Assembly: GCA_039819225.1 (NCBI GenBank)
Contig: JBCBSN010000001.1
Location: 1,969-65,968 of the forward strand
From: Bacteroidota bacterium
Lineage (GTDB): Bacteria > Bacteroidota > Bacteroidia > Flavobacteriales > Flavobacteriaceae
DNA: 64,000 bases
Direction: 5' to 3'
Position numbers and translations under genes: made by a program. The notes beneath the pieces are model-generated. The model ran no database searches. It was not told the origin of the DNA and worked only from the letters and a program-made list of their open reading frames with translations. Of this stretch, positions 10,884 through 39,636 are shown in pieces (within the stretch, counting starts at the first letter, position 1; each line of letters begins with the position of its first letter).

Positions 10884-10885
10884 CT

Positions 10886-15386: not shown

Positions 15387-18350
15387 ATGGGGCCAATGAA
15401 ATGGGTGTTGGGCGCAATATGTCTATGTGTGCCAATGTTTGTAATGGCACAGAACACAATAACCGGTGTGGTAAAGGACAAGGCCTTTGACGAGCCCTTG
15501 CCCGGGGCCAGTGTAGTCATCAAGGGAACTGCCACCGGTACCACTACCGATTTTGACGGCAACTATGAGATTCAGGCCGCTCTGGGGGATATTCTTTTGT
15601 TTTCCTATGTGGGCTTTAAGAGCATAGAAATAGAAGTGGACGGCACTGCCATTGATGTGGCCTTGGAAGAGGATACCGCCCAATTGGACGAGGTAGTCCT
15701 TATAGGGTATGGCTCCACCACCAAAAAGGATGCCACTGGCGCCGTAATCGGTGTTACGGAGGAGGAATTGAACAAGGGCTTTATCGCCTCGCCCCAAGAC
15801 CTTTTAATAGGAAAGGCTGCAGGAGTAAACATTACCACCTCTGGGGGTGCCCCGGGAAGTGGGAGCGAGATCCGCATACGTGGAGGTGCCTCCCTGGACG
15901 CGAGCAATGCTCCTCTGATCATTATAGACGATGTTCCCCTGGATAACTCCAACAATCCCGGATCTAGGAATGTTTTTGATTTTATCAATCCTGCGGACAT
16001 CTCCTCGTTTACCGTACTTAAAGATGCTTCCGCTACCGCTATTTATGGTTCCAGGGCCTCCAATGGGGTTATCATCATTACTACAAAAAAGGGGGTCTCG
16101 GGCGATTTAAAGTTCAATTTTGGCACTTCGGCATCGGTAAGTTCGGTAAAGGAGGATTTGGACGTGCTGAGCGCGGGACAGTTTAGGGACATTATCCAAC
16201 AGCGGTATCCCAATAGGGTATCCGAGCTGGGTAATGCCAGTACGGATTGGCAGGACGAAATCTTTAAAAGTGCGGTGGGTACGGATACGAATTTTAGCGT
16301 AAGGGGCGGTATTTGGGGAATACCCTTTAGGGCCTCCGTGGGCCATACGGAACAAGATGGTATTTTACGCACGGAAGCACTGCAACGGACCACTGCCTCG
16401 GTAAACCTTTCCCCCAAATTGTTCGATGACAAACTGCGGATCCAGATCAATGCCAGGGGTTCGTATAGCGAAAACAATTTTGCGGATACCAATGCCATCT
16501 TCAATGCCATACAGTTTGATCCCACAAGGCCCGTTTTTGATGCGGCCCTTCCAGGTGGTTTCTTTGATTATTACGAACCCAACGGAACTCCTACTGCCAA
16601 TACCGTGGCCAACCCCTTGGCCCTTTTGTTGCTCCGGGAGAACAGGTCCAACGTAAGGCGATTGGTGGCCAATGCCAAATTTGATTATCAATTTCATTTT
16701 TTCCCGGACATTACGGCCACCCTGAACCTTGGGATTGATAAGTCCAATGCGGACGGGGTGGACAATCAACCGGAAACCTTGTCCACGCAGCGGATTACCC
16801 AGGGCCTGTTCAGCAATTATGGACAGGACGAGGAGAACAAGCTTTTGGACTTCTACCTAAAATATACCAAGGAACTGGAAAAGTGGAATACACGTTTTGA
16901 CCTAACGGCGGGCTATTCTTACCAGAATTTTTTTGACAATCAGTTCACCAGCTCCGTTAGGGGAGATGGTATAGGAGGTACCACCATAGACGATATTATC
17001 CTTGAGAGCAATCTGCAGTCCTATTTTGGCCGGGCCAATTTGATCTTGGCGGATAAGTACCTCTTCACTTTTACGTATAGGAGGGACGGGTCTTCGCGTT
17101 TCGGAGGGGACAACAGATGGGGCAATTTCCCGGCCGCCGCCTTTGCTTGGAACGTGAGCGACGAGAACTTTCTAAAGGATTCCAAAAGCATATCCAACCT
17201 AAAATTGCGCCTGGGTTGGGGAGTAACCGGGCAACAGGATGTGATACAGGGGAACGATACCCAACCCTATCTGCCCCAATTTGCGCCCAGTCTTAACGGG
17301 GCCTCCGTACAGTTTGGACAGGATGCCAATGGAAATCCCATTTTTGTAAGTTCGTTAAGGGCACAGCCTTTTGATGCCAATATTAAGTGGGAAGAGACCA
17401 CTACCTATAACATAGGACTGGATTTTGGACTTTTTGACAATGTGCTCAGTGGAGCGGTGGAATTGTATTACCGAGAAACCGAAGATCTTTTAAGTACCGT
17501 AAATATCCCTATTGGCAGCAACCTTTCCAACCGTTTGCCTACCAATATCGGGAGTCTTACCAATCAAGGGGTAGAGGTTACCCTGAATGCAAAGATTCTA
17601 GATCGGGAAGATCTCACTTGGGACCTGGGATTCAACTATGCCTATAATGAAAATACGGTAGATCAACTGTTCCTTACCGACAATGCAGGGGGCGCGGGCA
17701 TTCCGGTGGCCGGAACGTTGCTTGTGGGTTTTGGCGGGGATGACGGTGCCCAGTACCATATTATAGACGAACCCACTAGAAGTTACCTGGTCTATGTGCA
17801 GGCCTACAATTCGGACGGGCTTCCTATACCGGGAACGGTAGTGGACCTTAATGGGGACGGGTTTATCAACAGCTTGGATAGGCGACCCTTCCAACAGGCG
17901 GCCCCCCTGGTAAATTTAGGACTTAACAGCAGGGTGAATTGGAAAAACTGGGACATGAGCTTTTCAATGAGGGCCAGTCTGGGCAATTATAATTACAATG
18001 GGATAGAAGTTCAGAACGGGACTTTTGCCAATGTAGATATAGGTCAAGATCTTAGGAATGTTACCAGTGCCACGGTGATAAATGGTTTTGATGATTACAT
18101 AGACGAGGTAACCTTCTCCGATTTTTTCGTACAGGATGCCTCCTTTCTCCGTTTGGACAATATTAATTTGGGATACACTTTTGGAAATGTCTTTAATGAC
18201 AGCTCTCGGTTACGGGTATTTTCCACCTTGCAAAATGTCCTGGTGGTCACCGACTATGAGGGACTAGATCCCGAGGTGCCCAATGGCATTGACAGAAATA
18301 TCTTTCCAAGGCCTTTTATTACCCAACTGGGATTGTCACTTGATTTTTAA
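15387..18350 (+). CDS. susC: SusC/RagA TonB-dependent glycan transporter (alpha-glucan type)
   Basis: NPADISSFTVLKDASATAIYGSRASNGVIIITTKKG; YRRDGSSRFG; KWEETTTYNIGLDFG; C-terminal YEGLDPE..FPRPF..GLSLDF. Confidence 0.95.
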   Translation: MGPMKWVLGAICLCVPMFVMAQNTITGVVKDKAFDEPLPGASVVIKGTATGTTTDFDGNYEIQAALGDILLFSYVGFKSIEIEVDGTAIDVALEEDTAQLDEVVLIGYGSTTKKDATGAVIGVTEEELNKGFIASPQDLLIGKAAGVNITTSGGAPGSGSEIRIRGGASLDASNAPLIIIDDVPLDNSNNPGSRNVFDFINPADISSFTVLKDASATAIYGSRASNGVIIITTKKGVSGDLKFNFGTSASVSSVKEDLDVLSAGQFRDIIQQRYPNRVSELGNASTDWQDEIFKSAVGTDTNFSVRGGIWGIPFRASVGHTEQDGILRTEALQRTTASVNLSPKLFDDKLRIQINARGSYSENNFADTNAIFNAIQFDPTRPVFDAALPGGFFDYYEPNGTPTANTVANPLALLLLRENRSNVRRLVANAKFDYQFHFFPDITATLNLGIDKSNADGVDNQPETLSTQRITQGLFSNYGQDEENKLLDFYLKYTKELEKWNTRFDLTAGYSYQNFFDNQFTSSVRGDGIGGTTIDDIILESNLQSYFGRANLILADKYLFTFTYRRDGSSRFGGDNRWGNFPAAAFAWNVSDENFLKDSKSISNLKLRLGWGVTGQQDVIQGNDTQPYLPQFAPSLNGASVQFGQDANGNPIFVSSLRAQPFDANIKWEETTTYNIGLDFGLFDNVLSGAVELYYRETEDLLSTVNIPIGSNLSNRLPTNIGSLTNQGVEVTLNAKILDREDLTWDLGFNYAYNENTVDQLFLTDNAGGAGIPVAGTLLVGFGGDDGAQYHIIDEPTRSYLVYVQAYNSDGLPIPGTVVDLNGDGFINSLDRRPFQQAAPLVNLGLNSRVNWKNWDMSFSMRASLGNYNYNGIEVQNGTFANVDIGQDLRNVTSATVINGFDDYIDEVTFSDFFVQDASFLRLDNINLGYTFGNVFNDSSRLRVFSTLQNVLVVTDYEGLDPEVPNGIDRNIFPRPFITQLGLSLDF

Positions 18351-18366
18351 CAATTAGCACTAGCGC

Positions 18367-19986
18367 ATGAGGAGCAAACACCACTTTATGATCATACTGG
18401 CATTTTTGTCGATACTGGTATTTTACGGTTGTACGGACGATCTGGACGCTATTGATACCAATAACCTTAACTCGGAAAATGTTTTTGAGGATGAAGAGAG
18501 CTATATTCAATTTCTAGCAAAGTTATACGCCGGGTTGGACCAGACCGGGCAGCAGGCCCCGATAGGCCAACCGGATTTGATCGGATTTACCGAGGGAAGT
18601 TCCAGTTATATACGCCTGTGGTGGGCCTTGAACGAATTTCCCGCCGATGAACTGAAATGGCGTTTTAACGACCCCGGACTGCGGGCCATCGTTTTTCAGT
18701 CATGGACTTCGGGGAACGACTTTTTTAGTGTTATCTACAGTCGCATATTCTTTCAGATTTCCCAGACCAATGAGTTTCTGAGGCAAACGGCACCTGAGGT
18801 TTTGGACGGTAGGGGCGTATCCGAAAACTTGCGATCGCAAATAGACATCTATAGGGCGGAGGCACGGTTTCTAAGGGCCATGGCCTACTATCATACGTTG
18901 GAACTCTTTGGAGGTAACGTTCCCTTTGTCACCGAGGAGGACAGTCCCGGGGCCTTTTTTCCGGAACAGACCACCGGCGCCCAACTCTTTGCCTATGTGG
19001 AATCCGAACTTTTGGAAATTGAGGGCCAACTTGTAGCGGTAGGACAACATGAGTATGGCAGGGTGGACAAAGGTGCCGCGTGGACCCTTTTGGCAAAGCT
19101 TTACCTAAACGCGGAGGTGTTTATTGGGGAAGGCAGATATGGGGACTGCATTACATATTGCAATGAGGTCCTTAACGCCGGGTATGTCCTGGAACCGCAA
19201 TATGCCGATCTCTTTAAGGCGGACAACAACCGCTCCAACGAAATTATTTTTCCGGTAACCTTTGATGGCGTCAACTCAAGATCTTTTGGGGTAATGTATT
19301 CTTTGATAAATGGAACATTGGATAGCAATATCATACAAAGCGATCCGGAGGCCTTTGGGACAAATACGGGAGGTTTTGCCGCCCTTACCGCTAAGGAAAC
19401 CTTTGTAGATCTTTTTGAGTTTATGGGCGACGATCCGTTCAATGATAGTCCGGATGTCAGGGCATCCTTCTTTTTTAAGGACGGGCACTCCGTGGATATC
19501 CCTTCGGAACCCATTGGCAGTTCCTTTCAGGAGGGCTTTGGCTATACCAAATTTAGGAATATAAAACGGGACGGCACCCCTGGACAAAGTAGTGATTTCC
19601 CGGATGTGGATTTTCCCTTGTTCAGGTTGGCGGATGTGCATTTGATGTACGCGGAGGCCTTTTTACGGGGAGGTGGGGGATCCGAGTCCGAAGCCCTGGA
19701 CTTGATAAATGACCTTAGGGAAAGGGCCTATGGCGACACTTCCGGAAATGTGGCTACCTTGGATTTGGATTTTATTATTGACGAACGTGGCAGGGAGCTG
19801 GGTTGGGAAGGACACCGGAGGATGGATTTGGTAAGGTTTGGCCGCTTTACCGGGGGCGATTATCTATGGGATTGGAAAGGCGGTGCCCAGAACGGCACTT
19901 CGATTAGCGGGCATTTGCGAATCTTTCCCCTGCCTTCTTCCGATATTTCCGTAAACCCTAACTTGACCCAAAACCCAGGATATTAA
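18367..19986 (+). CDS. susD: SusD/RagB lipoprotein, starch-SusD-like
   Basis: Lipobox FYGC; EARFLRAMAYY; FRLADVHLMYAE; ERGRELGWEGHRRMDLVRFG; WDWKGG..NPNLTQNPGY, typical of alpha-glucan SusDs. Confidence 0.92.
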   Translation: MRSKHHFMIILAFLSILVFYGCTDDLDAIDTNNLNSENVFEDEESYIQFLAKLYAGLDQTGQQAPIGQPDLIGFTEGSSSYIRLWWALNEFPADELKWRFNDPGLRAIVFQSWTSGNDFFSVIYSRIFFQISQTNEFLRQTAPEVLDGRGVSENLRSQIDIYRAEARFLRAMAYYHTLELFGGNVPFVTEEDSPGAFFPEQTTGAQLFAYVESELLEIEGQLVAVGQHEYGRVDKGAAWTLLAKLYLNAEVFIGEGRYGDCITYCNEVLNAGYVLEPQYADLFKADNNRSNEIIFPVTFDGVNSRSFGVMYSLINGTLDSNIIQSDPEAFGTNTGGFAALTAKETFVDLFEFMGDDPFNDSPDVRASFFFKDGHSVDIPSEPIGSSFQEGFGYTKFRNIKRDGTPGQSSDFPDVDFPLFRLADVHLMYAEAFLRGGGGSESEALDLINDLRERAYGDTSGNVATLDLDFIIDERGRELGWEGHRRMDLVRFGRFTGGDYLWDWKGGAQNGTSISGHLRIFPLPSSDISVNPNLTQNPGY

Positions 19987-20012
19987 AACACGAATTACAT
20001 AGAATTATCATA

Positions 20013-20404: not shown

Positions 20405-21511
20405 ATGAAAAGGATATATATGAAAGCATTGGTGCTACTTACTGGATTACTGGCCGTTTCCTGTGACCAAGATGATGGAATAAACATTGTCTTGCAGCCC
20501 GATCCGGAAGGTATTGAGTTTACAAGTTCCTTGTCCTCCAACTACCTTTTGTCCTCCCTGGCCTCATCGAATATAGCGGAACGGTTGGTCTGGAACCCTA
20601 TAGATTTTGGAGCCCCTATAGAGGCTACTTTTAGGCTGGAGGCTTCAACGGACCAAGAATCCTTTTCGGAAATGGGCACAAGTTCCGAGAACAATATCGC
20701 CATTATAGCGGAGGATTTGTTGGAACTTGCCGCTGAGTTGGGCCTGGACGAGGACGCAGGCACAACGGACGGGGAAGGTAATCCCAATAACAAGGGAACG
20801 GTTTATCTCAGGGTAGTGGGCATTTCCGGTAGTAACAATGCCGCCAATGCGGAGCAAGTAGTTTCCGAAGTACTGGCCATGAATATAGAGCTTATTGAGT
20901 CCGGGGACGGTCCTCTGGATCCCATTGTTCTGGCCACTTTCGGCGTGGTTGGGGAACAGGTGAACAATTGGGGCGAAACCGCGGATTTGCCGCTGTACAG
21001 CAGGGATAGCGGAGTGCTTTTTGCAAGTGTGGACGTGCCGCCCAACAGTCCTTTTAATATTAGGGAAAACAACGATTGGGTTACTAGCTACGCTCCGGAC
21101 GGGGATACCGCGTTGCAATTAAATGCGTTCGGGGTCTCCTTTAGTGTTCCGGAAGATGGCCCGCATTTGGTACGGTTCGACTTGAATGACCTCACTTATG
21201 AAATCGAAAAAAGGGACTCCTGGGGCCTGGTGGGCGAAAACATCAACAACTGGGGCGAGGGCTTTGATATTAGATTGACAGAAGACCCCGATCAACCCGG
21301 ACTTTGGATAGCCTTAGGTGTGGAAGTGCCTGCGGGCCCGGCCAATTTTAGATTGAACAATGAATGGACCACCACTTTGGCACCCGTTGAGGGTTCGGAT
21401 TTTCTAGAGTTTAACGTGTTCGGGGCCTATGAACTGGAGGCCGGAATATATAATATTACCTTGGATATAAGGGATGAGGATGCGATAACCGGGGAATTGG
21501 AACTTCAATAA
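20405..21511 (+). CDS. SusE/SusF-like surface lipoprotein with tandem carbohydrate-binding domains
   Basis: Lipobox LAVSC; SusE-type N-domain; two repeats FGVVGEQVNNWG / WGLVGENINNWG, each followed by F.IR.NN.W. Confidence 0.85.
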   Translation: MKRIYMKALVLLTGLLAVSCDQDDGINIVLQPDPEGIEFTSSLSSNYLLSSLASSNIAERLVWNPIDFGAPIEATFRLEASTDQESFSEMGTSSENNIAIIAEDLLELAAELGLDEDAGTTDGEGNPNNKGTVYLRVVGISGSNNAANAEQVVSEVLAMNIELIESGDGPLDPIVLATFGVVGEQVNNWGETADLPLYSRDSGVLFASVDVPPNSPFNIRENNDWVTSYAPDGDTALQLNAFGVSFSVPEDGPHLVRFDLNDLTYEIEKRDSWGLVGENINNWGEGFDIRLTEDPDQPGLWIALGVEVPAGPANFRLNNEWTTTLAPVEGSDFLEFNVFGAYELEAGIYNITLDIRDEDAITGELELQ

Positions 21512-21797: not shown

Positions 21798-23663
21798 ATG
21801 CGTACAAGGAGTAATAAACCATTTAAGATAGCTCTAGGACTCCTGGGTGCTCTGGTGATCCTTGTGGGGTGCGCCACGGACCGCCCGGTAACCCTGGTTA
21901 TTGATGAATTACCGAAGTCTACCCCTGTTAATGCCCATCTCTATTGTAGTTCCAGCTTGAATTTCTGGGATCCGGATTCCGAAAAGTTCAAGTTTAAGAA
22001 AGGCGAGAATGGCCACTATTACTTGTCCTTAAAGGATTTTAATCTGGACGTGGTCTCCTATTTGATTACCAGGGGTAACTGGTCAACCGTGGAAAGTACG
22101 GGCAATGGAGCACCCATACACGTGCGCAAATTAACGGCATCCTATAGCAGGGGGGATACGTTATATGTGCAGGTAAGGGGTTGGAGCGACTTGGACTTGG
22201 ATCACACGGAGTTGAAGCATATGACCTTAAAGGTTTTGGAGCTTCCGGAAAATAGCCCACCGGGTTCTTCGCTTTTTGTTTCCGGGGATTTCAACGGATG
22301 GGTTCCCGGGGATGATCGTTACAAACTACGGGAAAAGTTGGATGGTACTTTTGAGGTTAAGATTCCGGTTAGGGGCGATGAGGTCCAGTATAAGTTTACG
22401 CGAGGCAACTGGCTTACATCGGAAAGTATGGCCTTTGGAAGGCCAAGCCCAAATAGAAAATTGGCCTATTCCCGCTTCTCCTCGTATAAAGGGGACAAAA
22501 TTGAGTACTGGTCCGATCAGTCCTTTGGCCTCTTCAATCCGTACGGGCTGTTTCTATTGCTAACGGCATTTTTGGGCATCTTTCTCATTTTGATCATCAT
22601 GTCCTTAAAGAATACTAACAGGAGGGCAAACATTTACCTAAGTGTACTAATAGTACTGATCTCCATTTCATTGGGCGCCAGGATTTTGGTCTATGACCGG
22701 GATATTTTCTATTACTTCCCTAGATTGGAGATTCTTCCGGACATTGTGTACTTCCTCTACGCCCCCATTTTTTTTATTTACATTGGTAAATTGCTGTATA
22801 AGGATTCCCGAACTTATTCCCTTAAAAGGAATTGGTGGTTTTTTGTACCTTTTTTTTTGCAACTAGTACTGTACCTGAAATTTTTTCTGGAGCCCACACA
22901 TACTTTTATAGACCGGGCGGTAATCCAAGTGGTACACCCTACCATTTATGTGGTGGTCGCCGCTTTTGCATTGCTCTTCAACAGTTATTTCTGGGTAAGG
23001 TGCAAGGATATGATAGGCAAATATCTTTTGGCCATAGAGGATTCTTTTTCAGAGGATCAGAACTTGGTCTATCTCAAAAAAGTGATGGCCATAAAGCTTT
23101 TGTGCCTTATATTCTGGGCCCTTGCCTTTTTGGTCGGGGGCATGGGATATTTCTTTGGTTGGGATACCAACCGGATGACGCATACCATAATTGATGTATC
23201 CTGGGCCATATTCTCCTTAAATGTCTTTGTACTGGGTTATTTTTCCATTAGCCAACCGGAAATCTTTAAGGTGGCCGATCGGGAAGAGCCGCCAGAGCCG
23301 TCCAGTTCAAGCATGGACTCCCAGGAGCTTAAGGAGATTTGCGGTACTTTGGAAAAATGCATGAAGGAAGATCGGCTGTATTTGGATCCCCAGTTGAGTC
23401 TTCCCGATCTGTCCGGAAAACTGGGTTTTGGCGTACATGTAATTTCCCGGGCCATCAATGAGGGGTTTCAAAAAAACTTTAGGGACTTTGTAAACTCCTA
23501 TCGGATTGAGGAGTTTATTGTCCGGGCCAAGGACGAAAACTACAAAAACCAAACTTTTTTGGGCATTGCGCTGGATGTAGGCTTCAATTCCAAGTCGTCG
23601 TTTAACCGCTCTTTCCGCAAATATACGGGACAGACCCCTAGGGAGTATTTTAAGAACGACTAA
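21798..23663 (+). CDS. Transmembrane AraC-family regulator with two N-terminal CBM20/CBM48-like domains
   Basis: Two repeats (ELP..P....L..S...N.W.P...Y....RGNW...E); about 6-7 TM helices; C-terminal AraC HTH (LYLDPQLSL, FRDFVNSYRIEE, IALDVGFNSKSSFNRSFRKYTGQTP). Confidence 0.85.
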   Translation: MRTRSNKPFKIALGLLGALVILVGCATDRPVTLVIDELPKSTPVNAHLYCSSSLNFWDPDSEKFKFKKGENGHYYLSLKDFNLDVVSYLITRGNWSTVESTGNGAPIHVRKLTASYSRGDTLYVQVRGWSDLDLDHTELKHMTLKVLELPENSPPGSSLFVSGDFNGWVPGDDRYKLREKLDGTFEVKIPVRGDEVQYKFTRGNWLTSESMAFGRPSPNRKLAYSRFSSYKGDKIEYWSDQSFGLFNPYGLFLLLTAFLGIFLILIIMSLKNTNRRANIYLSVLIVLISISLGARILVYDRDIFYYFPRLEILPDIVYFLYAPIFFIYIGKLLYKDSRTYSLKRNWWFFVPFFLQLVLYLKFFLEPTHTFIDRAVIQVVHPTIYVVVAAFALLFNSYFWVRCKDMIGKYLLAIEDSFSEDQNLVYLKKVMAIKLLCLIFWALAFLVGGMGYFFGWDTNRMTHTIIDVSWAIFSLNVFVLGYFSISQPEIFKVADREEPPEPSSSSMDSQELKEICGTLEKCMKEDRLYLDPQLSLPDLSGKLGFGVHVISRAINEGFQKNFRDFVNSYRIEEFIVRAKDENYKNQTFLGIALDVGFNSKSSFNRSFRKYTGQTPREYFKND

Positions 23664-28943: not shown

Positions 28944-30212
28944 ATGGAGCGGTATTTTTTTACAATAGCTTTTCTTTTGGTAGCAACCGGTACTTGGGCA
29001 CAAGCATATACCTGGCCAAAAGCGGCACCGGCAACGGTGGGTATGTCCGAGGCACGCCTATCACGGCTTGACCGAATGTTGGAAAATGCGGTGAAGGAAA
29101 ACCAAATCCCAGGTGCGGTGGCCCTGATCGCCAGAAAGGGAAAACTGGTTTATCTCAAATCCCTTGGGCACTCCAATGATTCAGGGGAACCCTTGAAGAC
29201 CTCGGACATCTTCAGGATGGCTTCACAGACCAAGGCCGTTACGGCTACCGCTGTAATGATGTTATGGGAAGAAGGACATTTTTCCCTCGACGATCCCATT
29301 TCGAAATGGATTCCGGAATTTCAGAATCCAGGGATACTGGACTCGCTTTATGTGGATGGATCCTACACTACCAGCCCCGCCAATAAGGAGATTACCATTA
29401 GGCATTTAATTACACATACTTCGGGAATGGGATACGGGGTTATCGATGCTGATGAACGTTTCGGAAGAATGTATCAGGGTGCCGGGGCAACCGAGCTTTT
29501 TACCACTGAGGATATCACTATAAAAGAGAGTGTTGAAAAAATGGCCTCCTTGCCGTTGCACCACCACCCCGGCGATAAGTTTACCTATAGCGTGGGTCTC
29601 GATGTCTTGGGCTACTTTATTGAAATCATTTCTGGGATGCCCCTTGATGATTTTTTTAGGACCAGAATCTTTGAGCCGTTGGGGATGGAGGATACGCATT
29701 TTTATCTGCCCGAGAATAAAACTTCCAGATTAGTTCAGGTGCAGACCAAGGAAAACGGGCAGTGGAAACCTTTGGATGGCGGGTTTTATGACGTGGATTA
29801 TCCCAAAAAGGGAGCTCAAACTTTCTTTTCAGGGGGTGCGGGCCTGTCGGGAACGGCCGAGGACTATGCGAAATTTCTACAGATGTACCTCAATATGGGC
29901 GAGTTTAATGGAAAAAGGATTTTAAGCCGGAAAACCGTGGAATTGATTATGGCCAACCAGTTCGAGCATTTATGGCCCAACGATGGTAAATTCTATGGAC
30001 TGGCCTTCAGTATTGTCAATGAAGAGGGAAAGTCGATTGGGGGTCTGGGTAGCGAGGGCACTTTTGATTGGGGCGGATATTTCAACACCAAATACTTCGC
30101 CGATCCCAGCGAAGGCCTTATCGGAATTTTGATGAAACAGACATACGATATTGGCCCGGATCCCACGACCGAAAAATTTATGAGACTGGTTTTTCAAGCC
30201 ATTGACGATTAA
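28944..30212 (+). CDS. Serine hydrolase, beta-lactamase/class C esterase fold
   Basis: FRMASQTK (SxxK), LITHTSG, FTYS, FDWGG; signal peptide. Confidence 0.9.
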   Translation: MERYFFTIAFLLVATGTWAQAYTWPKAAPATVGMSEARLSRLDRMLENAVKENQIPGAVALIARKGKLVYLKSLGHSNDSGEPLKTSDIFRMASQTKAVTATAVMMLWEEGHFSLDDPISKWIPEFQNPGILDSLYVDGSYTTSPANKEITIRHLITHTSGMGYGVIDADERFGRMYQGAGATELFTTEDITIKESVEKMASLPLHHHPGDKFTYSVGLDVLGYFIEIISGMPLDDFFRTRIFEPLGMEDTHFYLPENKTSRLVQVQTKENGQWKPLDGGFYDVDYPKKGAQTFFSGGAGLSGTAEDYAKFLQMYLNMGEFNGKRILSRKTVELIMANQFEHLWPNDGKFYGLAFSIVNEEGKSIGGLGSEGTFDWGGYFNTKYFADPSEGLIGILMKQTYDIGPDPTTEKFMRLVFQAIDD

Positions 30213-32193: not shown

Positions 32194-32300
32194 TCTCATC
32201 TAAATGGTTTGCTGTCAAAAGGAAATTTTAATATGAATAATATCCACACATTAAAAGAAGGCTTTGAATAACCCAAATGGCAAAGGAGTTCGAGGCCAGA

Positions 32301-32608
32301 GACCGAGCGAAGCGACCGATGAATACCCGGAAAACAAAAAGATCATGAAAAAATTTTCAAGCGCAGTTAACTCAGGGTGTACGACAAATTTCCGGTTTTG
32401 GGCATAAACTCTCTTTTTTTGGACTTCTTTTCCATGAAAAGACCCCACCCAGCCTCCCCGCCTTTGGCGGGAGGAGTTTACCTCCTTCGGAGGGATTAAG
32501 GGAGGTCAAATATCAGGCTACGGAAATTTGTCGTACACCGGTTAACTTGCTGTTAATGAGCATTTAAAATCTCTAATAACGAAGACCGAGCAGAGCGACC
32601 GATGAACA
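32301..32608. repeat. Nested repeat cassette between GH127 paralogs: direct repeat - inverted repeat - REP doublet - inverted repeat - direct repeat
   Basis: DR gaccgagcgaagcgaccgatgaata (32301-32325) / gaccgagcagagcgaccgatgaaca (32584-32608). Perfect 19-bp IR ggtgtacgacaaatttccg (32376-32394) / cggaaatttgtcgtacacc (32521-32539). GC-rich hairpin doublet at 32441-32507. Confidence 0.75.
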
Positions 32609-32711
32609 CTTAAGCAATAAAATTGAGTGAATAAATCCAAAGCCATTTGGAGAAAATGTAGGAAAAATCGAAGTTATTCAAAGCCTTCTAAAATCAAGAA
32701 TTCAATTAGTT

Positions 32712-34760
32712 ATGGAACACAAAATAGGGATGACCGTTAGTGGTGTAATAAAAGGTATTGTGGTACTACTTTCTTTACTCTGTATGAGTTGTGGGGAAAC
32801 TACGGAAGTAGATGTGGTAAAGGCAAACGTAAAGTTCCACTTGGCGGAAAGAATATCCCAAACAAAACCAAAAGGTTGGATAGCGGAATTCTTGGCCATT
32901 CAGAAGCAAGGTTTAACGGGGAATATTGAGGAGGCCGGATATCCATTTGACACAAAAATGTGGATGGAAAGGATCGAATTGGATGAAACCACACAATTGG
33001 AAAGGGATAGGAGCCCGGGATTTAATGAATATGAAGAGGATCCAGGCGTGTTTTGGTGGCCTTATGAACAGACTGGATATTATCTGGATGGGGCTATAAA
33101 AGCGGGGTATTTGATACAGGATGATTTTTTGATTGACCGAGTGAAGGAGCAAATAGCACATTTGATGGCAAACCCCATGGAAAATGGTAGGCTTGCGCCA
33201 GCCAAATTGATCGGTAGATGGAATAAATGGCCTTACACCGGAATGTTCAGGGCATTTGTGACCGAGTATGAAGAATCCAAAGATCCAAGAATAATCGAGG
33301 CCATGCACAAGCATTACTTGAGTTACAGTGCGGAAGATTTTCAAGATGAACTGGACTTGGCGAACGTTGAGCATTTATGCTGGCTTTTTGAAAAAACAAA
33401 GGACAGCACCTTGTTGAACATGGCCGAATTGTCCTATAAACTATTTAAATCCGATATAAAAAATAGGAGAAGAACAGAAAATGATGATATCGTATTTGCA
33501 TCGGACAGAATTCCAGATCAGCATGGTGTAGTGTATTATGAGCTTGTGAAGATACCTGCCATATTGTACGTAGCAACCGGGAAAAAAGAATACCTACAAG
33601 AATCTGAACACGGTATAGAGAAGATACATGACAATTTTATGCTTCCGTCCGGACATCCGAGCACTACGGAACACTTTAAGCCGGTTTCTGAAAGAGCCGG
33701 TCATGAGACGTGTAACTATTCCACCCTACCGTACGCGTATGGGTATATGTTGAGAACTACCGGGGATCCCGTTTGGGCCGATAGAATTGAAAAATCCGCA
33801 TTCAATGCCGCTTTAGGGGCCATAACAAAAGATTTTAAGGCCCATCAGTATTTTTCATCTCCCAATCAAATGATCGCCACGCACGATTCTAGCCATTTTG
33901 GATATTATCCGGAATTTACGGCCTACGACCCGGGAAAACCGGTGGCATGTTGCACAGGGAACATAAACCGTTTTATGCCATACTACGCCATGCAATTGTG
34001 GATGAAAACAAATACGAACGGGGTAGCCCTTGCACTGTATGGGCCTTCGGAATTTGTGACCGCCGTTGGTAGCCAAAAGGTAAATGTCCACTTTAGTGAA
34101 AAAACGGATTATCCGTTTGATGAAAAGATTACAATCGAGGTAAATCCTGATCGGAGGGTTAGGTTTGGACTACGTTTAAGAATCCCCTCTTGGTGTTCCG
34201 ACCCTTCTATTGAAGTTAATGGGGAAGTAGTTGATGGTGTAGTGCCAGGTTCCTTTTTTGAGTTGAACAGAACCTTTGATAAAGGAGATGTGGTGCAACT
34301 TAATTTTCCCATGGAAATTGAAATTAAAAAATGGCCTTTTGGAGCTTTTTCAGTAGAGCGGGGTCCATTGGTCTACAGCTTGCCGATAGCGCATTCGGTT
34401 AAAATCGAAAAGGATTATGACAAAGGATCCGAAGCGTTCCCGGCAATGTCGCTTTCACCTGTTTCGGACTGGCAGTACTTGCCGGATGTTTCTAGATTAG
34501 ATGATATTCAAGTAGTCAAATCGGAGGTTCATGGATATCCTTGGACTTTACAAAATACCCCGATCAAATTGAAGCTTTGGGCGAACAAAATAGAAAACTG
34601 GAATCTGAAAGAAGTGATAACGGAAGACGGGGAAAAGACAGTTTTGCAAACCCCTGAATTTCCGGATAGTTTGATGTTGGCAGAAAAGAGAGAGTTGATC
34701 GAACTTGTACCTTATGGCACTACCCTTCTAAGGGTTACGGCATTCCCTGATAGTAAATAG
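32712..34760 (+). CDS. GH127-like cysteine glycosidase #3 (close paralog of #2)
   Basis: Lipobox CMSC; WWPYEQT, TTEHF, HETCN, ACCTGN, KDFKAHQYFS, ELVPYG shared with #2. Confidence 0.85.
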   Translation: MEHKIGMTVSGVIKGIVVLLSLLCMSCGETTEVDVVKANVKFHLAERISQTKPKGWIAEFLAIQKQGLTGNIEEAGYPFDTKMWMERIELDETTQLERDRSPGFNEYEEDPGVFWWPYEQTGYYLDGAIKAGYLIQDDFLIDRVKEQIAHLMANPMENGRLAPAKLIGRWNKWPYTGMFRAFVTEYEESKDPRIIEAMHKHYLSYSAEDFQDELDLANVEHLCWLFEKTKDSTLLNMAELSYKLFKSDIKNRRRTENDDIVFASDRIPDQHGVVYYELVKIPAILYVATGKKEYLQESEHGIEKIHDNFMLPSGHPSTTEHFKPVSERAGHETCNYSTLPYAYGYMLRTTGDPVWADRIEKSAFNAALGAITKDFKAHQYFSSPNQMIATHDSSHFGYYPEFTAYDPGKPVACCTGNINRFMPYYAMQLWMKTNTNGVALALYGPSEFVTAVGSQKVNVHFSEKTDYPFDEKITIEVNPDRRVRFGLRLRIPSWCSDPSIEVNGEVVDGVVPGSFFELNRTFDKGDVVQLNFPMEIEIKKWPFGAFSVERGPLVYSLPIAHSVKIEKDYDKGSEAFPAMSLSPVSDWQYLPDVSRLDDIQVVKSEVHGYPWTLQNTPIKLKLWANKIENWNLKEVITEDGEKTVLQTPEFPDSLMLAEKRELIELVPYGTTLLRVTAFPDSK

Positions 34761-34853
34761 GGTGTTATGGGCAAATTGGAAAGAACCCGTTCTATGGTCC
34801 CCGCACGTTAAGACTGCCCATTTTTTCGAAGATTTCAAAGAAGTAATCCATTT

Positions 34854-36287
34854 ATGAAAAAGCAAACAGAAAACGGTAAGAAAAATAATTTCACCCTGAT
34901 CTTCGTAAGTGCCATTGCCGCCTTGGGCGGTTTTCTATTTGGTTATGATACAGGTGTTATCAATGGCACCCAATTCTTTTTCAGCAAGTTTTTTGAATTG
35001 AGTCCAGCCACAAAAGGTTGGGTGGTGGGCAGTGCCCTGCTAGGCTGTTTTGCCGGGGCTCTGGTTTCCGGACCTTTGAGCAGGATGTACGGCAGAAAAG
35101 TATCGCTGATCTTGTCCGCGTTACTTTTTACCATTTCCGCGTGGGGCTCGGGGCTTCCCTCATTTTTACCACAGGCGGTGCCAATGCTGGTGGTATTCCG
35201 GATAATCGGTGGCCTTGGGATAGGGATAGCCTCTATGAACGCTCCCATGTACATCGCCGAGCTTTCTCCGGCCAATATCCGTGGTAAAATGGTCACCTTG
35301 TACCAAATGGCCGTTGTTCTCGGATTTTTTATCGTGTTCCTGGTTACCTACCAAATTGGTGCCGACAAAACCGAAGCCCATAATATAGCCCAAGGTTGGC
35401 GGATCATGTTCTGGTCGGAACTGGTGCCCTGCATCCTCTTTTTAATACTGCTTTTCTTTGTTCCTAAGAGCCCTCGATGGCTTTTGATGAAAAAAAAGGA
35501 AGAAGCCTCTATAAAGGTTTTGGCAAAAATACACGGTCTCCAAAATGCCAAGGTTACGGCTGCAGAAATCAAGGAATCCCTAAAGGAGAACAAGGCCCTA
35601 AAATTCCGCCATATTTGGGGCAAGAGTATTCTGCCCATTATTGGTATCGGCGTCGCTTTCTCTTTTTTACAGCAGTTTACGGGAATAAATGCGGTACTCT
35701 ACTATGGGTCGGATATTTTTGAAAAAGCCCTTGGGTTTGGCCAGGAAGATGTATTGGCACAGCAGATATTGTTGGCCGGTGTAAATGTATTGTTCACAGT
35801 TGTGGCCATGGCCACTGTGGATAAATGGGGAAGAAAACCATTAGTCATCTACGGGTCTTTCGGGATGCTTTTGGGATTTGCCCTCTTGGGCATTACCATT
35901 ATGACGGACACCGTAGGGCTTCTTTCATTGATCGGGATATTGTTGTTCGTTGGGGCCTTTGCCATGTCCATGGGGCCCGTGGTATGGGTGATTCTTTCGG
36001 AGATGTTCCCCAATAACATTCGGGCCATAGGCATGTCCATTGCCGTAGCTGCCCAATGGGCCGCCAATTATCTGGTTTCCCAGAGTTTTCCCATAATCGC
36101 GGAGAGCAAATTGAATACGGAGGGGATTTGGAACGGTGCCTTACCTTATTTCCTGTTTATGTTCTTTATTGTTTTGATAATTTGGTTTATGAAAAAGCGG
36201 ATGCCGGAGACCAAGGGAAAGACCTTGGAGGAAATAGAAAGTATTTGGATCGGTCGATATGGAAAATATGACGAGGAGAAAACGTAA
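34854..36287 (+). CDS. MFS sugar porter (XylE/GalP-like)
   Basis: GGFLFGYDTGVING, MYGRK, PMYIAE, PKSPRWL, QQFTGINAVLYY, DKWGRK, PETKGKTLEEIE. Confidence 0.93.
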   Translation: MKKQTENGKKNNFTLIFVSAIAALGGFLFGYDTGVINGTQFFFSKFFELSPATKGWVVGSALLGCFAGALVSGPLSRMYGRKVSLILSALLFTISAWGSGLPSFLPQAVPMLVVFRIIGGLGIGIASMNAPMYIAELSPANIRGKMVTLYQMAVVLGFFIVFLVTYQIGADKTEAHNIAQGWRIMFWSELVPCILFLILLFFVPKSPRWLLMKKKEEASIKVLAKIHGLQNAKVTAAEIKESLKENKALKFRHIWGKSILPIIGIGVAFSFLQQFTGINAVLYYGSDIFEKALGFGQEDVLAQQILLAGVNVLFTVVAMATVDKWGRKPLVIYGSFGMLLGFALLGITIMTDTVGLLSLIGILLFVGAFAMSMGPVVWVILSEMFPNNIRAIGMSIAVAAQWAANYLVSQSFPIIAESKLNTEGIWNGALPYFLFMFFIVLIIWFMKKRMPETKGKTLEEIESIWIGRYGKYDEEKT

Positions 36288-36308
36288 TTTAGCGGTAAAA
36301 TCAGCTCT

Positions 36309-37520
36309 ATGAAAATCGTAAATGCCGAAGTTATTATTTGTTCGCCCGGAAGAAATTTTGTCACCCTTAAAATAGAGACGGATCAGGGTATCTATGGTCT
36401 TGGTGATGCTACTTTGAACGGACGGGAACTTGCGGTGGCCACCTACTTAAAGGAGCATCTGATTCCCTGTATTCTAGATCGAGATCCCTTTGATACCGAG
36501 GATATCTGGCAATACCTCTACCGTGGGGTGTATTGGCGAAGAGGCGCCGTAAATATGACCGCGATTGGGGCAATCGATATGGCTTTGTGGGACATTAAGG
36601 GAAAGGCCCTAGGAGTGCCCGTCCACGCCCTGATCGGGGGCAAAAGCAGGCATAAATTATTGACCTATACCCACGCACAGGGCAAGGATAGAGCCGAGAC
36701 CTTGGAAAAAATATCGGAAACCATAAGCAAGGGATTCAAGGCCGTACGGGTACAGTCCGGCGTACCGGGAATTGAAAAGATGTATGGCATTGCCAAGGGT
36801 GTGGGGTCTTATGAACCGGCTTCCCAGGGAAAAAGGCCCGATGAGGAACAGTGGAGTACCGAAAAATACCTCAATTATCTGCCCGGGCTCTTTAATGAGG
36901 TTCGCAAGGAATTCGGTGAAGAGCTACATCTCCTGCACGATGCCCATCACCGGTTAACGCCCATTGAGGCCGCTAAGTTGGGGAAAAGCCTGGAACCGTA
37001 TCATTTGTTCTGGTTGGAGGATACCGTTCCTGCGGAACACCAACAGAATTTTGAATGGATACGGAAGCATACCACAACGCCATTGGCGGTGGGCGAGGTT
37101 TTTAACACCATTTATGATTGTCAGCATCTGATTACCCAACAGCTTATCGACTATATCCGTATGACGGTGGCCCATGGCGGCGGTCTAACCCCCATGTTAA
37201 AAATTGCCCATCTGGCGGAACTCTACGGTGTGCGTACGGGATGCCATGGCCCCTCGGATCTTTCGCCCGTAAATTTGGCGGCCTGTCTCCATTTTGGGAC
37301 GGCCATCAACAATTTCGGTATCCAGGAATATATGGGCTATGATCCGGTAACTATGGAAGTGTTCCAATTGGAACACCTATTTGAGGACGGATATTTCTAT
37401 CCGAGCGAAACCCCGGGGCTAGGCGTGGATATGGATTTGGAAAAGGCAGGGAAATATCCCTATAAACAGGCATTCCTCCCGGTAAACCGATTGGAGGACG
37501 GAACAATATATCATTGGTGA
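36309..37520 (+). CDS. manD: D-mannonate dehydratase subgroup enolase (ManD/RspA-like)
   Basis: ICSPGRNFVTLKI, GDATLNGRELAV, YWRRG, YEPA loop, HDAHHR, WLED, GCHGPSDLSP, PVNRLEDGT..W. Confidence 0.88.
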   Translation: MKIVNAEVIICSPGRNFVTLKIETDQGIYGLGDATLNGRELAVATYLKEHLIPCILDRDPFDTEDIWQYLYRGVYWRRGAVNMTAIGAIDMALWDIKGKALGVPVHALIGGKSRHKLLTYTHAQGKDRAETLEKISETISKGFKAVRVQSGVPGIEKMYGIAKGVGSYEPASQGKRPDEEQWSTEKYLNYLPGLFNEVRKEFGEELHLLHDAHHRLTPIEAAKLGKSLEPYHLFWLEDTVPAEHQQNFEWIRKHTTTPLAVGEVFNTIYDCQHLITQQLIDYIRMTVAHGGGLTPMLKIAHLAELYGVRTGCHGPSDLSPVNLAACLHFGTAINNFGIQEYMGYDPVTMEVFQLEHLFEDGYFYPSETPGLGVDMDLEKAGKYPYKQAFLPVNRLEDGTIYHW

Positions 37521-37604
37521 TATTTAAAGGTAAAAAGTAGCTACTAATAATTCTTGGTTCATATAGAATAGACGTAATGAATGTACGAAAGTTTGAATTT
37601 TGGG

Positions 37605-37757
37605 ATTGGCGGGGCGCAGAAATAACGAACAAAAGGCCGGAAGTGCGGTGCGCAGCACAACGCATGAAGGCCTGGGAGTGAGAGGTGCGCAGCAATTTCC
37701 TTGGCCCGCCTTGATTTTTTGTTTCGTTTTTCATCAAGGAAAAATGAAAAAGAAACC
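37605..37757. repeat. Structured intergenic repeat-like element
   Basis: ggcggg / cccgcc outer stem, gtgcggtgcgcagcacaacgcat inner hairpin, then a ccttgat..atcaagg hairpin with a ttttgtttcgtttt..aaaaatgaaaa tail. It resembles dispersed Bacteroidota intergenic repeats (recalled). Confidence 0.5.
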
Positions 37758-37910
37758 TCTAAAGAGCACAAATTTTGTCGAGCTATTTAGGGTTTTTCTG
37801 GGGTACATTTATGCCAATTATGAGAAATAAAAAAACTGATTTGGTTTTTCCAAGCCCCTCTAGTTGTTTTAAGGACCATATTATTAATTGTAATAATGAT
37901 TTTTAATTAA

Positions 37911-38693
37911 ATGAAAAGGTTTAAAGATAAATTTCTAGTAGTTACCGGAGCCTCCAAAACAGGAGGTGTTGGGGCCAGTGTGGCCAAACTTTTTGTGGAG
38001 GAAGGGGCAAGGGTCCTTATGTTGGATATGGATGCAGAAAGTGGAGCAGAACTGCAAGAGCAACTGGGGAACGGCACCCTTTTCCTAAAGTGCGATGTAA
38101 GCTCCGAGGAGTCCGTGGCTACCTGTGTGGAAAAAGGGATTCAAAAATTTGGAGGAGTGGACTATTTGGTCAATAATGCGGCTATTTTGGGGTATACCGC
38201 GGTACATGAAACTTCACTGGAAGAATGGAACCGGATTATGAACGTGAATGTCACCGGACAGTTTCTTTGTGCAAAACACGTTATCCCGAGTATGCTAAAA
38301 AGGGGCAAAGGGGCCATTGTGAACGTGGCCAGTGCCCAATCTTTTATGAGCCAAAAAAAAGTAGCGCCCTATGTTACCTCCAAAACCGCCATTTTAGGAT
38401 TGACCCGGAGTATGGCGGTAGATTATACGCCCAAAATTCGATGTAATGCCGTATGCCCCAGTACCATAGATACCCCCATGTTACACTGGGCCCTGGAACA
38501 ATCTCCTGATCCGGATGCGGTCATGCAAGAGTGTTTGGACATGCACCTCCTGAAGCGCATTGCCCGACCCGAGGAGATTGCCTCTTTGATCGCGTTCCTT
38601 TGTAGTGACGATGCCGCCAATATTACGGGACAATCGTTCAGAAGTGATGGGGGCATAGGACTATTGATCGAAGGAAGCAAACAGGACACCTAA
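37911..38693 (+). CDS. SDR family NAD-dependent oxidoreductase
   Basis: VVTGASKTGGVG glycine motif, acidic residue after beta-2 (LMLD), NNAA, YVTSK (YxxxK), IDTP. Confidence 0.9.
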   Translation: MKRFKDKFLVVTGASKTGGVGASVAKLFVEEGARVLMLDMDAESGAELQEQLGNGTLFLKCDVSSEESVATCVEKGIQKFGGVDYLVNNAAILGYTAVHETSLEEWNRIMNVNVTGQFLCAKHVIPSMLKRGKGAIVNVASAQSFMSQKKVAPYVTSKTAILGLTRSMAVDYTPKIRCNAVCPSTIDTPMLHWALEQSPDPDAVMQECLDMHLLKRIARPEEIASLIAFLCSDDAANITGQSFRSDGGIGLLIEGSKQDT

Positions 38694-38727
38694 TGTCAAT
38701 GGATTTGTACAGGGTAAAAATGAAAAC

Positions 38728-39636
38728 ATGCAAATAAGGGAGCATACGGTAAAAGGAATTGATCTTGTTGATGTCCTAGACGCCCAAGACCAACTGTTAT
38801 TACGAGTAGCACCGGGTTTTGGAGCCAAGGTTATGGAACTTAATCTGCCTGTAAAAGGAAATATAGAACCCATTCTTTGGAAGGTCAATTTTGAGGAGCT
38901 CCATACCAATGAATTCGGAAAAAATGATATCCTTTTTCCGTTTCCCAACCGCGTGGAGGATGGCCAGTATGAATATCAGGGAAATCGATATGATTTTCCC
39001 ATCAACGAAAAGGAATACAACAATAGCATTCATGGTTTTGTCCGGGAGAGGGAATTTCACCTAAAGCAGCAAGAAAGCGGGTCGAATGAGGTAAGAATTA
39101 CATTTGAATACCAGTATAAAGGCGAACTGTACTATCCTTTTCCCTTTCACCTTGAAGTAGGTTATACACTGCGGCCCGGGGTTTTTCAAATTTCATTTAC
39201 CATAACCAATATTGGGAATACCACTTTTCCTTACGGATTAGGATGGCACCCCTACTTTGTTCAGGAGGAAAGTGGGGATACCAAGGTACAGCTGCCGGAT
39301 TCTACGGAACATATGGCCGGGGAAAGGTATTTGCCCATTGGAAAAGTCAGTACTTGGAATAAGAGGATGTTTAGACCAGGGGATTCCTTGTATAATGTAA
39401 CCTTGGAATTGGAAGACAGCAGCCCAAGCTACGTATTTTGTTCTGGTCGCAGGGGAGTGAGAATTATCCCCTCCGCCGATTTTGGGTTTTTGCAGATTTA
39501 TACCCCGCCACAAAAAAACGTTATTGCCTTGGAGCCCATGACCTGTGGGATAAACGCCTTTAATACCGGTATTGGGCTAAGGGAGCTCGGAGCAGGGGAT
39601 AGCTTTGATGCGTATGTGGCCATTAACTTGGTTTAG
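38728..39636 (+). CDS. Aldose 1-epimerase (mutarotase) family protein
   Basis: LFPFPNRVEDG, SIHGFV, GLGWHPYF, LQIYTP, IALEPMT. Confidence 0.88.
   Translation: MQIREHTVKGIDLVDVLDAQDQLLLRVAPGFGAKVMELNLPVKGNIEPILWKVNFEELHTNEFGKNDILFPFPNRVEDGQYEYQGNRYDFPINEKEYNNSIHGFVREREFHLKQQESGSNEVRITFEYQYKGELYYPFPFHLEVGYTLRPGVFQISFTITNIGNTTFPYGLGWHPYFVQEESGDTKVQLPDSTEHMAGERYLPIGKVSTWNKRMFRPGDSLYNVTLELEDSSPSYVFCSGRRGVRIIPSADFGFLQIYTPPQKNVIALEPMTCGINAFNTGIGLRELGAGDSFDAYVAINLV

Follow-up and report, generated by a model that had tools for sequence, protein, structure and literature searches.

A run of fourteen genes in a 64,000-nucleotide (nt) stretch of flavobacterial DNA (contig JBCBSN010000001.1; we call the whole stretch the window) joins the import and sensing parts of a starch-type polysaccharide utilization locus (PUL) to esterases, GH127-like cysteine glycosidases, and an oxidative pathway for a hexose. 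All fourteen genes are on the + strand, between positions 15387 and 39636, and every one matches a Pfam or NCBIfam family above its curated threshold. A first-pass annotation of the same DNA had described this co-oriented run as a hybrid that couples starch-type import to GH127-like enzymes, esterases, and an oxidative pathway to a sugar acid, and both the coordinates and the gene families bear that description out. Judged from its sequences, the locus is built from a paralog of a starch PUL front end, with the SusG-type amylase replaced by a different GH13, two esterases, and two GH127-like subfamilies. We lean, if not by much, toward reading the whole array as a single functional PUL for an esterified starch-like glycan that carries a mannose-type sugar.

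A starch-type front end

The array opens with a SusC-like TonB-dependent transporter of 987 amino acids (aa) (15387-18350; Pfam CarbopepD_reg_2, Plug, and barrel domains). Sixteen nt further on lies a SusD-like lipoprotein of the starch-binding clade (18367-19986, 539 aa); both proteins exceed their Pfam thresholds, and they form an adjacent SusC/SusD pair. In comparisons with solved structures in the Protein Data Bank (PDB), the SusD protein matches 3ck7, the starch-binding SusD of B. thetaiotaomicron, with 281 bits and 3jys with 359 bits. Next come a SusE-like outer-membrane lipoprotein (20405-21511, 368 aa; Pfam SusE, 32.4 bits with a cut-off of 25.2) and a hybrid regulator (21798-23663, 621 aa) with an exported N-terminal sensor region and a C-terminal AraC helix-turn-helix domain (HTH_18, HTH_AraC).

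We compared these proteins with two canonical alpha-glucan PULs, from Maribacter spongiicola and Flagellimonas (L158 and L159; L-numbers denote related loci from our homology scans), in which the gene order is SusC-SusD-SusE-GH13 (SusG-like)-AraC-GH13 (cyclomaltodextrinase). Identities to the window proteins are 42% for SusC, 40% for SusD, and 31-36% for the C-terminal half of SusE, and homologs of the regulator that are 45-47% identical to it reside within the same canonical PULs. These homologs carry precomputed matches to starch-binding modules (X25, CBM48-like, and SusF-CBM). The first-pass annotation had placed a carbohydrate-binding module (CBM) in the window regulator itself; that match is weak (AMPK1_CBM, E 0.068), and the label stands for the homologs.

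As in the canonical PULs, a GH13 gene stands immediately after the regulator. Unlike them, the window has no SusG-like surface endo-amylase: the slot between SusE and AraC, occupied in L158 and L159, is a 286-nt gap, and the GH13 that is present and the canonical GH13 of cyclomaltodextrinase type share only about 23% identity. Further additions in the window are two esterases (CE4 and family VIII), three GH127-like enzymes, and a set of genes for hexose oxidation. It thus has the starch-clade SusD and the SusE/F-like protein of a Sus-like starch PUL together with an enzyme set that extends beyond the alpha-glucan-active families GH13, GH31, GH65, and GH97. On these comparisons, the front end (SusC, SusD, SusE, and the AraC regulator) descends from the flavobacterial starch PUL as a diverged paralog. 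Orthologs of its SusC in L004 (uncultured Flavobacteriaceae) and L008 (Flagellimonas amphidinii) are 77-89% identical.

GH13 and esterases

The GH13 enzyme is a neopullulanase/maltogenic-amylase-like lipoprotein of 653 aa (23836-25797; Pfam) with a complete catalytic triad (D343, E372, and D446). It overlaps the following gene by ATGA at 25794-25797, an arrangement of translational coupling that had been noted before and is confirmed here. That gene encodes a CE4 de-acetylase with a signal peptide (25794-26750, 318 aa; Pfam Polysacc_deac_1, 75 bits), and its metal site and catalytic motifs are intact (SFDD, residues 50-53, and HSYNH, residues 104-108). After the first GH127-like gene comes a carboxylesterase of family VIII, which has a beta-lactamase fold (28944-30212, 422 aa, signal peptide; Pfam Beta-lactamase, 224 bits). 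Its nucleophile motif is S94-Q-T-K97 (S-x-x-K), and its closest PDB matches, 7pp3, 4ivi, and 1ci8, are all esterases or carboxylesterases.

Both the pairing of these genes and their positions are kept elsewhere. Orthologs of the GH13, 50-79% identical, adjoin the first GH127-like gene (type A below) in twenty-two loci. The GH13-CE4 pair is also found in L004 and in L007, a metagenome-assembled genome (MAG) of Flammeovirgaceae; in L009 (Marinilabilia rubra) CE4 is present as well, with a sulfatase gene intervening between GH13 and CE4. The positions of both CE4 and the family-VIII esterase are kept in L004 and L007, and the esterase slot between the type-A and type-B GH127-like genes is kept in these two and in L008. 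Across related loci the recurrent esterases are CE4, family VIII, PF00756, GDSL, and SASA. Many type-B proteins form a single fused chain of about 940 aa with a PF00756 esterase, and an esterase of this family is adjacent or fused in twenty of the fifty-six loci whose type-B protein reaches 45% identity. Because esterases recur in related loci and often adjoin or fuse with type B, de-acylation is an integral part of the system.

Two subfamilies of GH127-like enzymes

The three GH127-like proteins, GH127_1 (26844-28934, 696 aa), GH127_2 (30226-32193, 655 aa), and GH127_3 (32712-34760, 682 aa), all score above the gathering thresholds of PF07944 and PF20736, the catalytic and middle domains of the family. 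The mechanical open reading frame (ORF) of GH127_2 begins at TTG 30202. Starting it instead at ATG 30226 reproduces the gaps of 9 and 13 nt previously given for the genes on either side of the family-VIII esterase. Each protein starts with a hydrophobic leader whose last residue is Cys, in keeping with the earlier description of all three as lipoproteins.

The claim that all three keep the Glu-x-Cys and Cys-Cys motifs also holds, and we located the residues: E378/C380 and C463-C464 in GH127_1; E313/C315 and C394-C395 in GH127_2 (numbered from TTG 30202; subtract 8 for ATG 30226); and E332/C334 and C413-C414 in GH127_3, which align with E338/C340 and C417/C418 of HypBA1. Both motifs are invariant in the family alignments. 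An invariant Glu 12-15 residues upstream is a candidate acid/base.

GH127_2 and GH127_3 are 44.6% identical, and GH127_1 is 23-27% identical to either. We therefore name GH127_1 type A and the other two type B, with two sublineages. By this measure the trio, present as had been claimed, consists of two old subfamilies and not of three copies of one enzyme. Orthologs of all three stand together in L009 (the GH127_3 ortholog at 57%), so the trio is old and did not arise by recent duplication. The nearest ortholog locus (L001/L004) is without a copy of GH127_3. Signal peptides are found in all type-B proteins of at least 45% identity whose N-termini could be read; one was unclear and has a reading extended upstream.

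AlphaFold models (pLDDT 82.5 for GH127_2, and 77.9) have the GH127/GH146 fold as their top structural match for both types. They superpose on GH127/GH146 structures with TM scores of 0.6-0.7 (0.64-0.72 for type A) at 12-16% sequence identity. The window proteins thus share with HypBA1, BT3674, BT0349, and the aceric acid hydrolase BT1003 an (alpha/alpha)6 barrel with a beta-sandwich, the Glu-x-Cys and Cys-Cys motifs, and an exported, exo-type character. They differ in their low identity to all solved members and in their context: the genes around them are for alpha-glucan use, esterases, and a mannose-type pathway, and none is an arabinose or pectin gene.

This context bears on the alternative that these are ordinary beta-L-arabinofuranosidases for hydroxyproline-rich glycoproteins or arabinans of plant or algal type, placed by chance next to an alpha-glucan PUL and a mannose pathway, so that two or three unrelated units merely lie side by side. 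Database names do read 'beta-L-arabinofuranosidase domain-containing', and the sequence matches to PDB chains, though weak, are best to beta-L-arabinofuranosidases and the aceric acid hydrolase. In addition, non-coding gaps of 390-518 nt could split the array into separate transcription units. Against this, neither the window nor any related locus examined has genes for L-arabinose catabolism, the distance to the characterized enzymes is large, and the linkage of GH13, esterase, and hexose module is kept across phyla, including in compact operons under GntR control that have no SusCD. We consider this alternative improbable. The genomic context argues for a sugar other than the known GH127 ones, and it is unlikely that the window enzymes have any of the three known GH127 activities.

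Known GH127 substrates are all 1,2-cis glycosides, and for that reason a beta-mannosidic linkage is a reasonable guess for the target. The mycobacterial MMP hydrolase is not GH127-like.

Linkage conserved across genomes

A scan for type A with one genome per species gave seventy-one loci, which we compared by tblastn and ORF clustering. Forty-three species-level loci extend more than 5 kb beyond the type-A gene in each direction, and thirty of these have a GH13 within 10 kb of it. The GH13s are of three kinds: the window's own (twenty-two loci), one of 551 aa, and one of 870 aa with Glucodextran_C. The linkage is found in Flavobacteriaceae, Cyclobacteriaceae, Saprospiraceae, Flammeovirgaceae, Marinilabilia, and Bacteroidales, and also in two Verrucomicrobia (L038 and L053, from Pelagicoccus mobilis and an Opitutales MAG). 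The window's gene order recurs in L004 and L008 and nearly so in L007, with the co-oriented enzyme and regulator genes kept beside the SusC/D pair, as in a PUL.

Seven of the eight loci holding both types A and B contain a GH13 as well as a hexose module. In a neighbor-joining tree of type-A proteins, those that co-occur with type B, the window's among them, form one clade, which takes in all eight loci. Compact operons without SusCD have the order GntR-GH13-type A-type B(-esterase)-cupin-ROK-580-aa protein-cupin(-MFS), where MFS is a porter of the major facilitator superfamily. Some relatives have further starch-type features: in L160 an amylase and an esterase, both secreted by the type IX system, and a SusE/F-like protein with a starch CBM adjoin the GH13-A-B operon, and L005 has a secreted CBM53 protein. 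Because this synteny recurs across phyla, it supports a functional link between the alpha-glucan genes and the GH127 genes as parts of one system. The first-pass annotation had named two unrelated loci side by side as the outcome that would undo its proposal, and the data give no support to that scenario.

Type-A relatives outside the window's clade (L018, L019, L074, and about thirty others) have different surroundings. Their loci encode a divergent AraC, a cytoplasmic PhyH-like Fe/2-oxoglutarate dioxygenase, a 275-aa TIM-barrel protein, the 551-aa GH13, and two S1 sulfatases, sometimes with GH92 or GH43. This suggests a sulfated substrate containing alpha-glucosides and an oxygenase step on the freed sugar. 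We dropped this context as a clue to the window's own substrate, as the window's type A belongs to the separate clade paired with type B.

Hexose catabolism and the identity of the sugar

The last four genes of the array encode a hexose uptake and oxidation module. An MFS sugar porter resembling the XylE/GalP monosaccharide:H+ symporters (34854-36287, 477 aa; Pfam Sugar_tr, 399 bits; NCBIfam sugar porter subfamily) is followed by a cytoplasmic D-mannonate dehydratase, ManD, of the enolase superfamily (36309-37520, 403 aa). The latter scores 674.9 bits against the ManD equivalog NF043051, with a cut-off of 550, and its closest solved proteins belong to the ManD subgroup (550-584 bits, the highest being 584 to PDB 3v3w). 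The third gene encodes an AldT-like aldohexose 1-dehydrogenase of the short-chain dehydrogenase/reductase (SDR) family (37911-38693, 260 aa; Pfam), whose best PDB matches are the Thermoplasma entries 3vtz (213 bits) and 2dtd, 2dte, and 2dtx (181 bits); its score against the NCBIfam aldose dehydrogenase model, 273 bits, is below the cut-off of 341. An aldose 1-epimerase, or mutarotase, is the final gene (38728-39636, 302 aa; Pfam Aldose_epim, 128 bits). Export leaders are present on the glycosidases and esterases and on none of ManD, the SDR, and the mutarotase. We take entries of the 2dtd/2zk7 type to be the T. acidophilum AldT. AldT oxidizes D-mannose to mannonolactone, which opens spontaneously at neutral pH (PMC6901390).

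Orthologs of this module are more complete. They have an SGL-family lactonase gene between the SDR and the mutarotase, and in L008 the array continues with a kinase for 2-keto-3-deoxygluconate (KDG) and then an aldolase for 2-keto-3-deoxy-6-phosphogluconate (KDPG). The L008 kinase matches best the kinase half of the NCBIfam KHG/KDPG aldolase-sugar kinase fusion model (495 bits). Given this kinase and aldolase, the product should be KDG and the substrate therefore a hexose of manno or gluco configuration. The pathway had earlier been called non-phosphorylative; the oxidative sugar-acid route stands, and in the fullest relative, L008, it is semi-phosphorylative. The MFS porter after type B is kept in L004, L005, L008, L086, and L090.

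Other lineages have a second, non-homologous module in its place: a cupin (PF06560), a ROK kinase, a protein of about 580 aa, a second cupin, and usually an MFS porter. Its genes occur in twenty-nine of the fifty-six type-B loci of a metagenome scan at the same identity threshold, some of them soil or freshwater contigs with no nearby GH13, and in eleven of the fifteen type-B loci with more than 4 kb on both sides. The 580-aa protein has PDB matches only to mannose-6-phosphate isomerases (1qwr, E 3e-8). No Leloir genes (GalK, GalT, or GalE) are found in this module. The two kinds of module track the type-B GH127, which, by this association, must free a monosaccharide in the periplasm.

The large protein of the second module is also of interest by itself. 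It is cytoplasmic, 580-590 aa long (L009 15616-17388; L022 16684-18435; L089 14343-16094), and belongs to no Pfam family; its central part weakly resembles the isomerase 1qwr, and no match was obtained for its N-terminal 230 residues. In every case the protein lies between the ROK kinase and a 260-aa cupin with a faint JmjC-like match. The cupin-ROK-580-aa-cupin module is an uncharacterized sugar pathway in its own right.

Since two independent, non-homologous modules point to it, we give D-mannose about an even chance of being the released sugar. The main alternative, its C2 epimer D-glucose, is possible though clearly less probable. The first-pass annotation had proposed instead that the GH127s remove alpha-D-galactofuranose (alpha-D-Galf) from an acylated alpha-glucan and that galactose is then converted to 2-keto-3-deoxygalactonate. 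The conserved GH127 fold and Zn-Cys motifs, the stereochemical analogy with beta-L-arabinofuranose, and the presence of an oxidative aldose route are all in keeping with that proposal, which would need a galactonate dehydratase. The window's dehydratase is a ManD equivalog, however, and scores 251.7 bits against the galactonate dehydratase model, below the cut-off of 311. Moreover, the SDR is AldT-like, L008 ends in a KDG-type kinase and KDPG aldolase, and the alternative module contains a ROK kinase and a mannose-6-phosphate isomerase-like protein without the Leloir enzymes. The galactofuranose proposal is thus very improbable.

A stronger rival keeps the whole system within glucose. Here the glycan would be a decorated alpha-glucan made of glucose only, the GH127-like enzymes would be 1,2-cis alpha-glucosidases for esterified, branched, or oddly linked residues, and the downstream genes would be a semi-phosphorylative Entner-Doudoroff branch running from glucose dehydrogenase over gluconolactonase and gluconate dehydratase to KDG kinase and aldolase. 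The import and sensor parts are all of starch type, alpha-glucosides are 1,2-cis like the known GH127 substrates, and the ortholog lactonase belongs to the SGL/gluconolactonase family. Three further points favor this rival: 3vtz, the top PDB match of the SDR, was deposited as a 'glucose 1-dehydrogenase'; the ROK protein scores best as a member of the glucokinase family; and the first cupin belongs to the family of cupin-type glucose-6-phosphate isomerases. It accords less well with a dehydratase that passes the ManD cut-off and whose nearest PDB entries are named D-mannonate dehydratase, with an SDR whose second and third PDB matches (2dtd and 2zk7) are presumably AldT, an enzyme assayed on D-mannose, and with the isomerase-like protein of the alternative module. 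A dedicated glucose pathway would also be superfluous beside central glycolysis, and the pathway tracks type B even in loci without a nearby GH13 (L075, L077, and L106-L124). We regard the glucose-only account as unlikely, though worth keeping in view.

A proposed pathway

Gene content, intact motifs, and kept linkage come from sequence and synteny; from these we infer the order of steps and the identity of the sugar. In the reading we prefer, an esterified glycan or oligosaccharide containing alpha-glucosides would be bound by SusD and SusE and imported by SusC in the manner of starch. CE4 and the family-VIII esterase would strip acyl groups in the periplasm, GH13 would cleave alpha-glucosidic bonds, and the type-A and type-B GH127-like enzymes would use a zinc-activated cysteine to remove a hexose that GH13 cannot reach. 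This hexose, most likely D-mannose, would enter through the MFS porter, be anomerized by the mutarotase, and be oxidized to a lactone by the AldT-like SDR. The lactone would open spontaneously or by a lactonase encoded elsewhere. ManD would then dehydrate the acid to KDG, which would proceed by the KDG kinase/KDPG aldolase route, with enzymes that may be encoded elsewhere.

Several observations weigh against this reading of the locus as one mannose-directed system. Some ManD-subgroup enzymes dehydrate D-gluconate, and the oxidative module could equally run on D-glucose, to which the names of 3vtz and the ROK protein's best family also point. A plain mannose route leaves no role for the second cupin or for the isomerase-like protein's large N-terminal part, and the sugar may be a more unusual one. 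To our knowledge, no GH127 member releases mannose, and we know of no natural glycan that unites alpha-glucan and acyl esters with a mannose-type residue in 1,2-cis linkage. Nowhere in the 64-kb window are there genes for a lactonase, a KDG kinase, or the aldolase.

The array is also interrupted by intergenic gaps of 418, 518, and 390 nt. The 518-nt gap upstream of GH127_3 (32194-32711) and the 390-nt gap between ManD and the SDR (37521-37910; 1-8 nt in orthologs) contain no ORF, and an Rfam scan of 15000-40500 returned zero matches, so there is no known RNA in them. These two long gaps, the missing lactonase gene that orthologs have, and the absence of GH127_3 from L004 suggest local rearrangement. 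A scan for sigma-70-type promoters gave hits that were not enriched and singled out no promoter, and the Bacteroidetes -7 motif TAnnTTTG is in none of the intergenic gaps of the locus. In a search of public sequencing reads, one DNA run (a marine metagenome) contains the locus sequence and no RNA run does.

We hold only tentatively, with doubt outweighing belief, that the locus combines a new GH127 specificity (release of D-mannose, plausibly 1,2-cis beta-mannosidic, from a chemically undescribed esterified glycan) with a bacterial oxidative D-mannose pathway. If true, the GH127 substrate range would extend past beta-L-arabinofuranose, aceric acid, and 3,6-anhydro-D-galactose. The pathway (AldT-like dehydrogenase, lactonase, ManD, KDG kinase, and KDPG aldolase) would be the first oxidative one for D-mannose in bacteria, and ManD would gain a physiological role outside uronate catabolism, with the D-mannonate route in a clear physiological context. 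The glycan, an esterified, alpha-glucan-like one that is chemically undescribed, would be recognized by marine and soil Bacteroidota through duplicated starch-uptake machinery; it would also be common, given how widely the glycosidase pair occurs among Bacteroidota of marine, freshwater, and soil habitats. This would affect the carbon-cycle accounting of 'alpha-glucan PULs'. The conserved operon (GH13, GH127 types A and B with esterase, and a hexose module) offers a compact, testable set of enzymes with at least two cultured carriers, Marinilabilia rubra WTE16 and Flagellimonas amphidinii LMIT004, the latter having the whole array from SusC through KDPG aldolase. We found no description of this system in the literature on GH127 with GH13/CE4, on sulfatases with alpha-glucan, on new GH127 specificities, or on GH127 and mannose.

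Comparison with carrageenan and Thermoplasma systems

The reported carrageenan regulon of Zobellia galactanivorans has three GH127 3,6-anhydro-D-galactosidases, sulfatases, and the enzymes DauA-D (PMC5698469). The window resembles it in having several GH127 paralogs in one marine flavobacterial locus and an enolase-superfamily enzyme that leads to a 2-keto-3-deoxy acid, with kinase and aldolase as the next steps; an AraC regulator and sulfatases also occur in the window's relatives. One could accordingly read the window's GH127s as 3,6-anhydro-D-galactosidases or something related, with the enolase-superfamily enzyme acting like DauB to open the ring of an anhydro-aldonate. Such an enzyme would also give a 2-keto-3-deoxy acid if it beta-eliminated a C3 ether, the number of GH127 genes is the same as in the Zobellia locus as described there, and S1 sulfatases and AraC regulators flank type-A relatives. 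The binding proteins of the locus are all of starch type, and the window has no sulfatase anywhere in its 64 kb, as had been stated earlier, although sulfatases are common around type-A relatives. Nor does it contain carrageenases or other enzymes of the GH16, GH82, GH150, or GH167 type, an aldehyde dehydrogenase, or the DauA-D pathway. It has ManD and an SDR with lactone oxidation, in contrast to the aldehyde dehydrogenase and cycloisomerase of Zobellia; the dehydratase scores as a ManD equivalog, and the mutarotase and lactonase imply a normal cyclic aldose. A carrageenan-like system is hardly credible here.

A tblastn search of plasmids, aimed at carrageenan-plasmid GH127s, gave best matches of 24-36% identity, from unrelated organisms. 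Among other substrates, 1,5-anhydrofructose, methylglucose lipopolysaccharide, trehalose lipids, teichoic acid, xanthan, and sulfated xylomannan were weighed and set aside, with no positive evidence for any of them.

The mannose route we favor has a parallel in Thermoplasma. The mannonate dehydratase of Thermoplasma has a fold that differs from the enolase superfamily, to which the window's dehydratase belongs. An oxidative route for D-mannose has been proposed for Thermoplasma acidophilum, with AldT, mannonate dehydratase, and KDG aldolase (PMC6901390). The chemistry would be the same in the window (D-mannose to mannonolactone, D-mannonate, and KDG), and it is the aldohexose dehydrogenases of Thermoplasma that the SDR resembles most. 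Unlike that route, the bacterial version has a mutarotase and a porter and sits in a PUL, and it becomes semi-phosphorylative through the lactonase, KDG kinase, and KDPG aldolase that its relatives add.

Borders and neighboring genes

A palindromic hairpin of 16 pairs (15116-15150) lies between susC and the preceding pair of genes for a TonB receptor and a DUF4374 protein, and is likely the upstream border of the locus. It was the sole strong hairpin of a terminator scan, and the scans yield no operon map. Another hairpin (39696-39716) lies between the mutarotase gene and the convergent genes beyond it. A repeat search in the locus gave a single 31-nt match, due to the paralogy of GH127_2 and GH127_3.

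Upstream, the cluster at 1324-15080 looks like one for metal or haem uptake. On the - strand it encodes a PepSY_TM protein (1324-2988), an HmuY-like protein (4832-6394), and a TonB-dependent receptor (6391-8538); on the + strand are a DUF6607 protein (8640-9563) and the second TonB-dependent receptor with its DUF4374 lipoprotein (11344-15080).

Downstream, the genes at 39789-45036 are on the - strand, convergent to the locus. They encode two proteins of 176 and 241 aa without a family match, a flavocytochrome resembling ferric reductases (41129-42430), a DUF6597-AraC regulator (42450-43217), and another Sugar_tr porter (43684-45036), which falls into one cluster with the porter of the locus. 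A second, separate PUL follows at 50312-58210, with an extracytoplasmic function sigma factor (50312-50854), a FecR anti-sigma factor (50966-52000), a SusC-like transporter of 1147 aa (52166-55609), a SusD-like protein (55638-57059), and a DUF4996-containing glycerophosphodiester phosphodiesterase (57239-58210). The substrate of this PUL may be a glycan with phosphodiester links or a glycerophospho compound, e.g. teichoic-acid-like material. Housekeeping genes at 45914-49561 and 59505-63613 flank the PULs and include those for a Kdo transferase, a DegT-type aminotransferase, an NAD-dependent sugar epimerase/dehydratase, and 2-oxoglutarate dehydrogenase E1 and E2.

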